Positions 20,256 through 32,000 of a stretch of DNA of 32,000 nucleotides are shown here, piece by piece. Below the pieces are notes generated by a model, which saw only the letters and a list, made by a program, of their open reading frames with translations, ran no database searches and was not told the DNA's origin. How positions within the stretch are numbered: the first letter of the stretch is position 1; each line of letters opens with the position of its first letter. The stretch lies in assembly GCF_900460955.1 (NCBI RefSeq), contig NZ_UFUW01000001.1, forward strand, positions 1,144,738 to 1,176,737, in the 5' to 3' direction. A program made the translations under genes and the position numbers. The DNA comes from Cardiobacterium valvarum. GTDB taxonomy: Bacteria > Pseudomonadota > Gammaproteobacteria > Cardiobacteriales > Cardiobacteriaceae.

Positions 20256-20264
20256 TGGTATAAT
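20256..20264 (+). promoter_or_regulatory. Extended -10 promoter element (TGgTATAAT) upstream of cdiB
   Basis: An exact TGnTATAAT lies 50 nt upstream of the cdiB ATG (20314). No convincing -35 is present, which is compatible with an extended -10 promoter. Confidence 0.4.
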
Positions 20265-20313
20265 ACGATTTATACAATCAAACTACGGATGGACCATCAT
20301 CCAAGGAAGGCCT

Positions 20314-26457: not shown

Positions 26458-29400
26458 CCGTCAATGCCGACAGCGCGAACAACGAAGGACACATCACGGC
26501 AGGCAGCATTGACGGCACGGCGCAAAACATGTTGAACGGCAGCCTGTGGGACGGTTGGCGCACTACCCGCGCGGTAAATGGCAAATTTGGCAGCTGGTTT
26601 CGTGATGACTACCAGATGTTCAATAATTACACCCCGCCCAATATTACCGAACCAGTTCAAATTTCCTTGGGGAGCTTAAATATCGGTGGCAACCGCTACG
26701 ACGGTACTGGTGGTGGCGGCGTTCCCTCCCCCGGCGGCAACGGTGGCGGCAACGGTGGCGGTGGCAACAACGGCACCACCATCGTGGACACCATTGACAA
26801 AAACGGCAAAACCGTCACCTACCAAACCATCAGCGACTACCAGCCCGCACTGCCGCAAAACAGCCTCTACCAAATCAACCCGGACAACATCGCCGCTCCG
26901 GACAGCATCCCGACCAACCCGGCCCGGGGCCTCTACACCCTTGACCCGACCTTCGCCCGCATCCTGCAAAAACGCCGCCCCGAACTCTTCGAGAACGGCG
27001 AGCTGATGCGCACGCCGATGAACCCGCACTACGACCGCTACAGCGACCTGAACGACAAAGGCGCGGCATACAGCGGTACCACGCAGGGCGTGCCCTACAT
27101 CGACTTCAGCCGCAGCATCGGCGACCGCTACTACAACCAGGAACTCGTCAGAAACCAAATCGCCCGCCTTACCGGCTACCGCTACCTCAAGGGCTACCAG
27201 GACGACAGCAGCCAATTCAACGCGCTGGTTGCTGCCGGCGAACGCCTGCGGGCCAAACTGCAACTTGCCCCCGGCGTTGCTCTGACAGCCGAGCACATGA
27301 AGAGCCTCAGCGAAGACGTCGTGCTGATGGTCAACAAAACCATCACCCTGCCCGATGGCCGCCAGATCGTGCGCCAGGTGCCGCAAGTTTATGCACAAAA
27401 ACGCCCGGATGACCTTGACACCAGCCGCCCAACCATTGGCGCAAACCGCATCGCCCTCAAAGGTAACTACCACAACAACGCCGGCGACATTGGTGGTCGC
27501 GACACCCTCAAACTTGATTACCGCAACATTGACCACAGCGGTACATACACCAGCAACCACGGCGACGTCCATGCCAGCGACACCTACAACGGCAGCGCGG
27601 GCACCATCAATGCCGGCAAATACTTCAAAGCCACTGCCGGCAAACAGTTCAACTTCCAGCCCAAAACCGCCGACCACAACGAAAACGCTGCCAAAGACGC
27701 GGGCAAGAGCTACCACAACAGCCACACCATCATTGCTGAAGGCCGGCTCAAACGCTACGCCACGGGCAGCACCGTTATCCTCGGCGAAGCAGACGAAACC
27801 AACATCGGCACCACCGCACTCGACCTCGGCGACAAAACCAGCACCACCCTCATCCAGGGCAAAAAAACCGACCTGGGTGCAGAATTTGTCTACGAACAAA
27901 CCCTCGACAAAAAGAACGCGGGCAACTACGACTACCACTACCGGGGCGAACACAAAGGCGTGCACACCAGCGGCGACGGCAAACTGGCCGTCATCGCCAC
28001 CGATGGCAAACTGACCATGAAAGCCGCCGAACTCGACAGCGGCAAAAGCCAGGTATACCTCTACGGTGCCAAAGGCGTTGACGCCGAGGCGGGGGAAATT
28101 GTTGAGCACACCATCAGCGCCCGCGAAAGCAAACAACGCGGCTTCCTCAAACGCACCCACACGCGCGACTACGTCGAAACCGAAATCCATCAGAACAAAG
28201 CCGGCACCATCACCGGCGATACCGTCGTCGTGGCGGCGGGACAAGGCGACATCAACGCCACCGGCATGCACATCGTCAGCGACCACGGCACCATGCTGCA
28301 TACTGACAAAGGCGACATCAACCTTAAAGCCGGCAAAAACAGCTATCGCAGCGTCGAAAAACACAGCAAACACAAAACCGGTCTGATGGGTTCCGGCGGC
28401 TGGGGCGTATTCCTCGGCAGCCGCCGTCAGAGCGGCGAGACCGAACTCGACATCAAGGCCCCCGCCCCGACCCTGGTTGGCGCGATCGACGGCAACATCC
28501 ACATCCAGGCGGGCGGCCACTACGATGGCACGGGCGCCCTGGTACATGCTGGACGCGAAGGCGGGCCGCTCACCAAAGAACAATGGCTGCAGATGAGCGA
28601 AACCGAACGCAACCGCGCCGGCAACATCTACTTCAGCGCCGAAAGCGGCAGCCTGCGTGCGGCGCGCGGCAGCCAAGACCACGAAATGCACAGCCACTAC
28701 AAACAGACCGGCTTCACCGCCAACCTGGGCGGCGCCGTGGTCAACGTCGCCCAGACCGCCCTGCAAACCATGAAAACCCTGAGCGAGGGCGATAACGCCC
28801 GCGTCCGGACCATGAACACGCTCAACAACACCTGGGCCAACTACAAAGGCATCGAAGCCCTCCGCAAAGCCCTGGACAGATCCGAGGGCAACACCGACAA
28901 AAACCTCATCAACATCCAGATTACCCTGGGCGGCCAGCACAGCACCGTGCACCACAAAGCCCACGAAGATACCCTGCTGCCCAGTCAGATGACCGGCGAC
29001 AGCGGCGTGTACGTTGACATCAAAGGTAAAGGCGAAGGCAGCACCCTGGACGTCATCAGTTCCGACCTGGCGGGCAGCGCCATCACCCGCCTCAACGTCG
29101 AAGGCAAAAAGACCTTCGCTGCCGACAGCGTGCACAAAACCATCGAGAGCAGCCAGCACAGTGGCGGCGGTGGTGGCGGCGTCGCCATCATGTGGGGCTC
29201 GGGCGGCGGCGGTTTCGGCTTTACCGGCAACGCCAACATCGGTAAAGGCAAAACCAGCGGCAACAGCACCACCTACCGCCTGAGCCACATCGGCGGCCTG
29301 CAGGGCCACACCGACATCGGCGACGGCAAAACCCTGCTCAACGGCGCCCAAATCCTCGGCAAAAGCCTGGAAGGCAACACGCGCGACCTCGTCGCCATCA

Positions 29401-32000
29401 GCCCGCAAGGCACCATGGACTACGACAGCAAAAACTTCGCCCTATCCGGCTCCGTCCTCTACGGCTACGGCTTCGCAGCCGACCTGAACGGCGAAAAAAC
29501 CCGCGTCTGGGCAAACGAAAAAACCATCAACAAAGAAAGCGGCGGCAGAGACGCCATTACGAGCGTCAACAGCAACAACGCCCGCATCAACGCCTGGAAA
29601 AAAGACGTCCAACAAAACGACGCCGTCGCCAATGCCCAGCAGGGCACCATCGGCGGGCAGAGCGGCTTCTTCGCGGGCGACGACGGCTTCCGCATCAAAA
29701 ACAGCGGCACCGCCACCCTCGAAGGTGCGACCTTTGTCAGCACGGCTAAAGCCGAAGCCGAAGGCAGAAACCACTTCAGCACCGACCGCCTTATCCGCAA
29801 AGACCTGGAAAACCACAGCGAATACAAAGGCAAAAGCGTGGCGCTCGGCCTGAGCGCCGTCTTTAGTGGCGACAAAAACAACGGCACCTCACAACAAATC
29901 CAGTGGCTGGGCGAAAACTTCAGCCCCATCAACGTAGGTGAAAGCGGCCTGAGCAGCCGCTTCGGCTATGACCGCACCAATAAAAACGATCGCGGCACCA
30001 CCTACGCGAGCATCAACACTGCGAACATCACCATCAACGACGCGGCGGGCCAACAAGCGCTGACGGGAGAAAGCGTGGCCGATACCATCCGTAACGCCAA
30101 CCGTGGCATGACGCTCGCGACCGCGAAAGAGCAAAGCGGCGCGGCCGATGCCCACTTTGATGCGGCGAAAGTCGAAAACAGCGTGCGCACCAACGCACAA
30201 GTGATGAAAACCTTCACCGGCACCGTACAAGAAGTCAAAGGCGACCTGCGCAAGTGGGCAGAAGAAAATCGCCGAGAATCCATATACCAACGAGACCCGG
30301 AAAAGCGGGCTGCCCAACTGCAACGCGCAGAACAACAAGAACAACTGGCCGTTGCGGTGGACATGCTCGGCGGCGCCCTCGCCCCGGCGAACAGCGCAGC
30401 CGGCAGCATAGCCAACACCCTGGCGCCGGCCATCGCCTACAAAATCGGACAAGAAGCCAAACAACGCGGACTGGAAGGCACCCCAGGACACATCGCCGCG
30501 CACACCCTGCTGGCAGGGGCGAGGACTGCGTTGAATGGCGGCAGCACCGGCGAAGTATTGGCCAGTGCCGCAATAACCGGTACCGCCGAATACAGCGCGC
30601 CGCAGCTGGCCAAACTCCTCTACGACAAAGACATCAGCCAACTGACGGCGGCGGAAAAAAGCGCGCTCGGCCAGACTATCGGTGCCCTGACGACGGGGGC
30701 AGGCGCGATGACGGGCGGCAATAGTGCCACGACCTACAACACAGGGAAAACCGCGCAGAATGCGGTGGAGAATAATGCCTTGTATGCGAATGAAGAAAAA
30801 GAACGACATGATGCAAGAGTACTACTTAAGCATAAAGCCTATAAAAACGAAGAAGAGAAAAACAAGCTAGAAAATACAATTAAAGAACTTAATATAAAGG
30901 ATGAGGTTTTTGATTATAATTTAATAAACTCTTGCCAAGAGTTATCATCAGCAGCATGTGTCGAAAACAGAAAAATTCTAACAGACATGCAAAATAGCTA
31001 TAATAACTCTATTGGAAATTCATATACTGCTCGTATGCGTGATATATATCCCATAGGAGAAAAAAATGTAAATAGGCTTATAGGGTTATATGCGGCACAA
31101 GATGAAAAAATAAATCGGGATAATATTGTTAAAACAATCGCAAATAATTGGAATATAAGCCAAGAAGCAGCAGAACTATGGTATAAAACAATAAATTTCA
31201 CCCATAATATAGGACTGGTTGCTAGTATGGGGTACATGCACCCTATTAGTACCAATATTGCCCCCTCTAAATATACAAACCGTGCGATAATTAGCAACAA
31301 ATCTTCAGCTATTGAGACGGCTAGAGGCAAAGCTCGACCTACAGAAAATAACTATGTAAACCGTGCGGCGATTAATAATGAATCTCCTGTTGGTACTAGC
31401 AGTTTTCCTCATCCCAACCCGGCGAGTACTACATGGCGTATCGAGGGAGTAGAGTGGAATAAAGCCTCTTTACCGGACAAAACTGCCGGAGCATTGGATA
31501 CAAAAACATTGCAGGTGCCGGGGATAACAGATGGTACGAATTTCTATAGCAATAGGAATGTTCAAAGCATCAAAGGTAATGTAACTAATAAATTGATACC
31601 CAAGTCTAAAGGTGTTGGTAGTGCGGAATACGGAATATATACTAGCGTAAAGTCTCTTGATGAAGTTTTCCCAGAATTAACCAATCCGGACATCAACCCT
31701 CATTACAAAGTAGGTGCACCACCTGGAACTAATATAAATTGTGTAAACTGTGTAAATACAGTTACACAACGGCTAACAGGAAAAAATCCTAGAGATATCA
31801 AAGCAATAGCAGATAATACTAAATTATATGCTAATCCAAATGGCCTATTACCTAGCATGCCGACTGGATTTAGTCCAGATGTTGTAACGCCTGCACAAGC
31901 AATAGCTGCAATGAAAGAAGCTGGTGATGGTATTACAGGCGCTATAGTTATTAAGCAACCTAGTGGAATATCTCATGCAATAAGTGTAGTCAATCGAGGC
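26319..32000 (+). CDS. cdiA: CdiA continuation in frame 3 (open from 26319 to the window end; recognisable CdiA sequence from ~26400): central domain, FHA-2/pretoxin region, VENN motif and C-terminal toxin region (3' end off-window)
   Basis: I translated every codon from 26406 to 32000 by hand and found no stop. The sequence reads GVVRNVAPGKISVGGNLTVNADSANNEGHITAG..., then ...LTAEHMKSLSEDVVLMVNKTITLPDGRQIVRQVPQVYA..., and ends at ...TGKTAQNAVENNAL followed by an AT-rich CT. It is absent from the ORF track because it has no stop within the window. Confidence 0.88.
30765..30776 (+). other. VENN motif (pretoxin / CdiA-CT boundary)
   Basis: The codons gtg gag aat aat, in frame with the long ORF, give the context NAVENNALYANEE. 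Nucleotide composition changes abruptly at this point. Confidence 0.85.

Follow-up and report, generated by a model that had tools for sequence, protein, structure and literature searches.

We examined a 32,000-nucleotide stretch of Cardiobacterium valvarum DNA (contig NZ_UFUW01000001.1; the whole stretch is referred to as the window) whose right-hand part carries a putative contact-dependent inhibition (CDI) system. Judging from sequence comparison, we think it quite likely that the region is a class-I CDI locus (gene order cdiB-cdiA-cdiI) on a P4-type integrase island at the 3' end of a tRNA-Ser(UGA) gene, and that its cdiA was most likely inactivated by the loss of one adenine from a run of six (A6→A5). 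The locus appears to be a genuine cdiBAI island of a type already well described, and it has probably been disarmed in this strain. A first-pass annotation, made from the letters of the window, had proposed a cdiB-cdiA-(cdiI) operon; that interpretation is supported, and its description of the open reading frames (ORFs) needs correction. Sequence past the window end was taken from public assembly contigs (L002 and L004, the latter reaching window-equivalent position 47599). The comparison contigs were two from metagenomes (L003 and L012), the Cardiobacterium sp. Marseille-Q4385 island (L011), and the tRNA-Ser(UGA) loci of relatives (L006 and L007). The features of the cdi genes in the window are as follows.

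20314 to 22056, plus strand: cdiB, a TpsB/Omp85 transporter of 580 amino acids, by profile search.
22159 to 26457, plus strand: cdiA 5' fragment of 1432 amino acids with ESPR, two-partner secretion (TPS) domain, and FHA-1 repeats, ending at a premature TAA (26455 to 26457).
26396 to 26400, plus strand: frameshift site, an A5 run (GAAAAAG) that is A6 in intact alleles, by alignment with metagenome contig L003.
26401 to 32000, plus strand: cdiA 3' part in the −1 frame (frame 3), with glycine-rich linker, FHA-2, pretoxin, and C-terminal region (CT), running 111 nt past the window.
30765 to 30776, plus strand: VENN, the border at which the conserved CdiA body gives way to the variable CT, by comparison of homologs.
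30828 to 31007, plus strand: DUF6862 module (PF21726, 29.8 bits) at the N terminus of the CT.
31734 to 32000, plus strand: predicted Tox-PL1/Gln_amidase papain-fold toxin domain (PF15644), cut by the window end.

The TpsB transporter proposed at these coordinates was confirmed by matches to ShlB (E = 2.5e-94), POTRA_2, and POTRA_3. The public assembly calls cdiB with identical extent, and AAGGAAGG lies upstream of its ATG. NCBIfam gave no match for cdiB or for the CT. The TPS domain and FHA repeats expected in the TpsA partner were also recovered: the 5' fragment holds ESPR, TPS (E = 5.7e-44), and Fil_haemagg domains in Pfam, the 20-amino-acid FHA repeats reached E = 4.9e-48, and TIGR01731 and TIGR01901 were matched in cdiA (NCBIfam). 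However, the single TpsA of more than 3,270 codons described earlier does not exist as one frame; there are instead two plus-strand ORFs, the first in frame 1 and the second in frame 3. The 5' fragment is 94.6% identical to residues 1 to 1414 of an intact 3125-amino-acid homolog. The 3' part, read in frame 3, is 88.9% identical to residues 1398 to 2928 of the L011 CdiA and contains Fil_haemagg_2, DUF6862, and PT-VENN in Pfam, together with a presumed receptor-binding/YP region. This 3' ORF lacks a signal sequence, and its called GTG start is not preceded by a Shine-Dalgarno sequence. Public protein records match C. valvarum products exactly for cdiB (SUX21926.1), the 1432-amino-acid cdiA fragment (SUX21930.1), and the 409-amino-acid integrase upstream (SUX21906.1).

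The reading frame breaks because the A5 run at 26396 to 26400 forces a −1 frame change. Frame 1 is open from 22144 to 26454, where the TAA follows, and the open stretch of frame 3 begins at 26319 and reaches the window end. A tblastn search with the 3125-amino-acid protein gave a collinear alignment that ends at 26400 in frame 1 and resumes in frame 3 (26361 to 30989) without a further break, and inserting one A produced a 3317-amino-acid ORF with a single terminal stop and no other lesion. We also built a query across the junction with one added A; a word-indexed protein search returned one match, the metagenome protein P0007 (91% identical), which reads uninterrupted through the junction (...KYHYILEKSVGVVRNVAPGK...). 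P0007 and P0034 both read ...HYILEKSVGVVRNV... across it, and all four homologs that cover the junction (P0007, P0034, P0026, and P0031) are in frame there, as are the full-length homologs of 3125, 3417, and 3452 amino acids. At the DNA level, L003 matches the window exactly across about 180 nt except for one single-nucleotide polymorphism (SNP) and GAAAAAAG in place of GAAAAAG. The second metagenome contig, L012, which encodes the 3452-amino-acid CdiA, also carries the A6 allele. Among the sequences compared, the A5 allele was limited to the window and the other C. valvarum assembly, GCA_042431515.1; the junction pattern with either A5 or A6 had no match in JGI metagenome contigs.

An A5 run in a public assembly could be a homopolymer under-call, in which case the strain would truly be A6 and would hold an intact 3317-amino-acid cdiA and a functional CDI system. 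A single-base change within a run of adenines is what such an error would leave, the rest of the gene is collinear with intact homologs and free of further lesions, and the flanks match those of the A6 alleles. Against this, A5 is also present in the second assembly, an independent build with indels and SNPs relative to the window at other positions. In addition, the nonsense codon in the neighboring DUF927 gene (below) is a substitution, which is not a typical homopolymer error, and indicates that the island is genuinely decaying. Since the same allele occurs in two assemblies beside an independent DUF927 nonsense change, we judge the one-base deletion in the A6 tract to be genuine and the cause of the cdiA split, and consider an assembly error unlikely.

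We also weighed whether the A run could act as an ON/OFF switch, either by slipped-strand A5/A6 phase variation or by −1 ribosomal slippage on A-AAA-G. The tRNA-Lys on AAA at 26398 to 26400 could re-pair with the AAA one base back, the slippage product (...ILEK-SVGVV...) would equal the protein of intact homologs, and both A5 and A6 alleles occur among related sequences. If this were so, cells would mostly secrete a toxin-less TPS/FHA-1 filament, and a subpopulation would be armed with full-length CdiA carrying Tox-PL1. However, a tract of 5 to 6 nt is shorter than tracts known to vary at useful rates, and no Shine-Dalgarno-like element lies 5' of the A run. The downstream RNA is not unusually folded (z = −0.49; 61 of 200 shuffled sequences fold equally well), and the frameshift is not conserved, the homologs being in frame with A6 or with a different sequence. 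Programmed frameshifting was therefore set aside, the slippery site being present with neither an RNA stimulator nor conservation, and a switch of either kind appears very unlikely. A plain deletion thus remains our preferred explanation, under which this copy of cdiA is probably nonfunctional and the two public coding sequences ought to be annotated as a single frameshifted gene.

A glycine-rich low-complexity linker, GGGGVPSPGGNGGGNGGGGNNG (26709 to 26738), lies just 3' of the frameshift, and its length differs between homologs. On L012, the cdiB beside the intact 3452-amino-acid cdiA (954 to 2693) is called in two pieces of 144 and 395 amino acids, which could mean that this island family has a different lesion there or that the metagenome was misassembled.

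The first-pass annotation had drawn a VENN-delimited C terminus. The boundary itself is clear: DNA homology to L011 stops at 30775, and homologs are collinear through ...TAQNAVENN and diverge immediately after it, four of them having ...AVENN in common. The PT-VENN profile match is borderline, at 17.5 bits on the long fragment (under the 20.3-bit cutoff) and 21.2 bits on the CT alone. The GC content, 0.54 to 0.61 over the cdi genes, drops to 0.386 in 31001 to 32000. The CT spans about 510 amino acids and is modular. Its DUF6862 module is presumed to be part of an entry or translocation region. Part of the middle segment (NNYVN…WRIEGVEWNKASLPDK…) recurs, at 65% identity, in a protein that bears a C39-like peptidase instead of the toxin domain found here.

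The delivered toxin had been left unassigned. From profile and motif matches, we find that it can be assigned to Tox-PL1/Gln_amidase: PF15644 scored 35.6 bits against a cutoff of 24.1 and covered profile positions 1 to 113 of 114. The NC…H…DxQ signature described for Tox-PL1 by Zhang et al. 2012 (PMC3482391) is complete, with NINC at 31731 to 31742, GISHAIS at 31965 to 31985, and YFIDGQ just past the window. As the annotation had stated, the window ends inside the toxin domain; cdiA stops 111 nt later in the public assembly, and the last 36 residues, DxQ among them, are missing from the window copy. The structural reference of PF15644 is OspI of Shigella, a glutamine deamidase (PDB 3B21), and other members may be peptidases (PMC10318531). 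We found no sequence relative of the CT in the PDB.

An exhaustive HMMER search of 1.84 billion proteins placed this toxin subtype in 68 representative clusters, always at the C terminus; in 2 of the 68 the representative is a full CdiA protein (P0081 and P0095), and P0095, an unrelated CdiA, shows the same pairing of DUF6862 with Gln_amidase. A CdiA-borne Tox-PL1 thus appears to be rare, not unique. The delivery routes tabulated for Tox-PL1 in PMC3482391 are type 2, 3, 6, and 7 secretion systems (T2SS, T3SS, T6SS, and T7SS) and MuF, with type 5 (T5SS) absent. In contrast to that table, a CdiA fusion bears the domain in this locus, as in P0081 and P0095. Our literature searches found no CDI-delivered member of Tox-PL1. 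The CT returned six matches in a word-indexed protein search. An exact 60-mer from the window end had no match in the genome contig collection, so the species representative evidently lacks this CT.

The immunity gene and any orphan modules had been expected beyond the window, and sequence past position 32000 contains both a small ORF after cdiA and a series of orphan modules. The ORF encodes 108 amino acids, overlaps the cdiA stop by 14 nt, and is preceded by an AAGGAG Shine-Dalgarno sequence; we regard it as the candidate cdiI. An orphan immunity paralog with 51% identity to it lies next to an orphan 5'-truncated Tox-PL1 remnant, which is 55% identical to the main CT. We read the modules 3' of the candidate cdiI as a textbook orphan array, in this order.

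Module 1, past the window: the 5'-truncated Tox-PL1 remnant with its own immunity paralog.
Module 2, past the window: PT-HINT/WHH-Colicin-DNase with a 135-amino-acid ORF.
Module 3, past the window: an FHA/PT-VENN orphan of 824 amino acids.
Module 4, past the window: a CdiA_C_tRNase module.
Module 5, past the window: a second WHH module with a SUKH immunity gene.
Last, past the window: a further PT-VENN fragment, then an insertion sequence (IS).

These downstream genes bear on whether the locus might be a generic two-partner-secretion adhesin or hemolysin (FHA- or ShlA-like) and not a CDI system. TpsB and TpsA domains alone cannot separate the two, and the NCBI product names go no further than "two-partner secretion domain-containing protein" and "hemagglutinin repeat-containing protein." However, the adhesin reading is opposed by the VENN boundary with abrupt loss of homology after it, by a polymorphic-toxin domain at the extreme C terminus, by a small ORF over the cdiA stop with a paralog beside an orphan copy of the same toxin, and by the additional orphan modules downstream (WHH/Colicin-DNase with SUKH, CdiA_C_tRNase, and PT-VENN fragments). 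We therefore hold the adhesin explanation to be highly improbable. The cdiBA(I) layout is borne out by the divergence at VENN, the PF15644 toxin, and the 108-amino-acid ORF.

A repeated element accompanies the orphan modules. Each orphan toxin/immunity module is followed by a hairpin (GTGGGCAA…TTGCCCAC) together with a unit of about 24 nt that can face either way (CAGTGTTTATCCCGCTTGGCGG), and L011, the sister island, has the element too. Its role may be in recombination or termination, or it may be a repetitive extragenic palindromic (REP)-like repeat found throughout the genome. Its copies are as follows.

L004 8091 to 8196, 12753 to 12839, 13138 to 13243, 16188 to 16283, and 17312 to 17401: hairpin plus the unit of about 24 nt.
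L004 9797 to 9901 and 17487 to 17644: three to six tandem copies of the repeat of about 24 nt, just 5' of orphan cdiA fragments.
Window 4907 to 4928, minus strand: a degenerate copy.

Upstream of cdiB, ARAGORN and profile matches confirmed the tRNA-Ser(UGA), P4-type integrase, AlpA, and DUF927 genes that had been noted there. These and the adjoining parts of the window are listed below.

1 to 13200: ordinary chromosomal genes, including an EamA transporter, DUF2167, recJ, homoserine dehydrogenase, and greA.
13494 to 14760, minus strand: remnant of an IS (DDE_Tnp_1) directly 5' of tRNA-Ser, with a PF01609 match on the ORF at 13494 to 13763.
14829 to 14918, plus strand: tRNA-Ser(UGA), the integration target (attL side), by ARAGORN.
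15062 to 16291, plus strand: P4/CP4-57-type tyrosine integrase, a 409-amino-acid ORF with a homolog-supported start at 15119 (Arm-DNA-bind_3, Phage_int_M, and Phage_integrase).
17069 to 17338, plus strand: AlpA-family regulator, excisionase-like (PF05930, E = 3.2e-12; 95.5% identical to its L011 homolog).
17788 to 19410, plus strand: DUF927 (primase/helicase-like) gene, inactivated by TGG→TGA at 18049 to 18051.

The island origin of the cdi locus, also proposed earlier, is supported by comparison with relatives. In Marseille-Q4385 (L007), whose greA product is 98% identical, tRNA-Ser(UGA) is flanked by an SDR gene and greA, with only a helicase remnant after it; in a metagenome-assembled genome (MAG), the SNF2 helicase there is intact. 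Neither Marseille-Q4385 nor the MAG has integrase or cdi genes at tRNA-Ser(UGA). The same module is present in Marseille-Q4385 behind tRNA-Ser(CGA), next to fmt-rsmB, as int, alpA, an intact DUF927 gene (537 amino acids), an IS, cdiB, a cdiA of 3125 amino acids, cdiI, and orphans. From the tRNA to VENN, the window and this island are collinear at 91 to 95% DNA identity. The two tRNA-Ser genes have identical 3' halves, which explains the alternative integration targets. The integrase is 96% identical to that of L011, and its public name is "Prophage CP4-57 integrase [Cardiobacterium valvarum]."

The DUF927 gene is collinear in one frame with the intact L011 protein (tblastn), with TGA replacing a Trp codon; its longest ORF matches only Pfam profile positions 173 to 281, and the TGA is common to both C. 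valvarum assemblies. At the left end of the island, window 14385 to 14760 matches, in reverse orientation and at 87 to 88%, the IS within L011 6523 to 7075, and the orientation of tRNA-Ser relative to greA and hom is inverted compared with L006 and L007. This arrangement suggests that the IS remnant marks a rearrangement breakpoint and that the tRNA-plus-island segment underwent an IS-mediated inversion. The DUF927 nonsense codon and the putative inversion would fit a decaying, immobilized island. The cdiA frameshift, the DUF927 nonsense codon, and the lack of a detectable attR repeat were all absent from the first-pass annotation.

An iteron-like 22-nt unit (TATTGACGCAAATCTGTGTCAG) is present in about 14 copies between integrase and alpA in L011 (3284 to 3723); the array in the window is reduced to about two (16745 to 16790). 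Assembly GCA_042431515.1 is 99.9% identical to window 10316 to 32000, with 22 differing positions in 21.7 kb, 19 of them within the integrase (15343 to 15688). A 1-nt indel among these splits the integrase of GCA_042431515.1, and the cluster could stem from gene conversion from a paralogous integrase or from an assembly artifact. Among the chromosomal genes, an ORF between hom and greA (11041 to 11985) has a partial sodium:alanine symporter match (profile positions 190 to 300 of 392) and may be a truncated or pseudogenized transporter.

Several points count against a disarmed CDI island. The cdiA lesion falls in a homopolymer, and long-read assemblies err most often at such sites. The two C. 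valvarum assemblies may be from the same strain, since only 3 positions differ outside the integrase patch, and in that case they would verify the sequence itself, though not circulation of the allele. The Imm35 label that UniRef attaches to the 108-amino-acid ORF was not reproduced with Pfam, even at E ≤ 10; Imm35 is the specific partner of Tox-PL1 (PMC3482391). Finally, a search for an attR copy of the tRNA 3' end, allowing up to 3 mismatches, was negative both in the 32.7 kb past the tRNA (L004, to 47599) and in L011. The far border of the island may lie further away or have been lost.

The delivery steps and enzymatic activity that we propose follow the established CDI model and family membership. 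An intact CdiA would be exported across the outer membrane by CdiB, by way of its TPS domain, and its FHA-1 filament would display the receptor-binding region. Upon contact with a neighbor, the FHA-2/pretoxin part would deliver the region after VENN, with entry by the N-terminal modules of the CT (DUF6862 and about 250 amino acids more). The Tox-PL1 Cys-His-Asp domain would then deamidate or cleave a cytoplasmic target protein, and siblings would be protected by the 108-amino-acid product of the next gene. In this strain, A6→A5 would end translation after 1432 residues, and the exportable product would be a TPS and FHA-1 stub only, missing the receptor-binding part as well as FHA-2, pretoxin, and toxin. 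The toxin-bearing part would lack an export signal, and the candidate cdiI and orphan immunity genes would stay. Because export would be truncated and the toxin part left without a signal, the CDI weapon is most likely inactive.

CDI loci on tRNA-linked islands with orphan arrays have been described (PMC4927057). The locus shares with the Escherichia coli-type cdiBAI islands (EC93; pathogenicity island [PAI] II at leuX of uropathogenic E. coli [UPEC] 536, PMC4927057) the cdiB-cdiA-cdiI order (with cdiI a candidate here), the TPS/FHA/PT-VENN/CT architecture, the exchange of CT and putative immunity genes at VENN, downstream orphan arrays with IS elements, and a position at a tRNA 3' end beside an integrase. 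Unlike these, it has a Cardiobacterium (HACEK) host, a small int-alpA-DUF927 backbone, a tRNA-Ser target (UGA or CGA, depending on the genome), a predicted Tox-PL1 toxin, and a frameshifted cdiA. As in P4/CP4-57-type islands, the integrase has the same domain set, AlpA and DUF927 genes accompany it, insertion is immediately 3' of a tRNA, and the same tRNA in a relative is island-free; unlike in those islands, no attR was found and DUF927 is a pseudogene. The toxin domain resembles the Tox-PL1/PF15644 family in its above-threshold score, its NC…H…DxQ signature, and its extreme C-terminal position. The CDI islands of Neisseria meningitidis (tpsB/tpsA, or fhaC/fhaB), a mucosal commensal and pathogen, have extended arrays of 5'-truncated cdiA cassettes with immunity genes and short repeats between them. 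The cassette arrangement here is similar, going by their general description; unlike in N. meningitidis, the inter-module repeats are a Cardiobacterium-specific unit of about 24 nt.

Taken together, these data add little to what is known of CDI islands in general and document one in a HACEK endocarditis organism. One island family uses two tRNA-Ser isoacceptor genes that have a common 3' half. The Tox-PL1 domain and its candidate immunity partner may offer a tractable route to identifying what a papain-fold toxin with deamidase or peptidase activity targets in bacteria. If the deletion is genuine, as we judge, the locus would be a clean natural case of a CDI weapon lost by a single-base deletion with its immunity and orphan genes kept, a pattern that fits the view that immunity outlasts the toxin.

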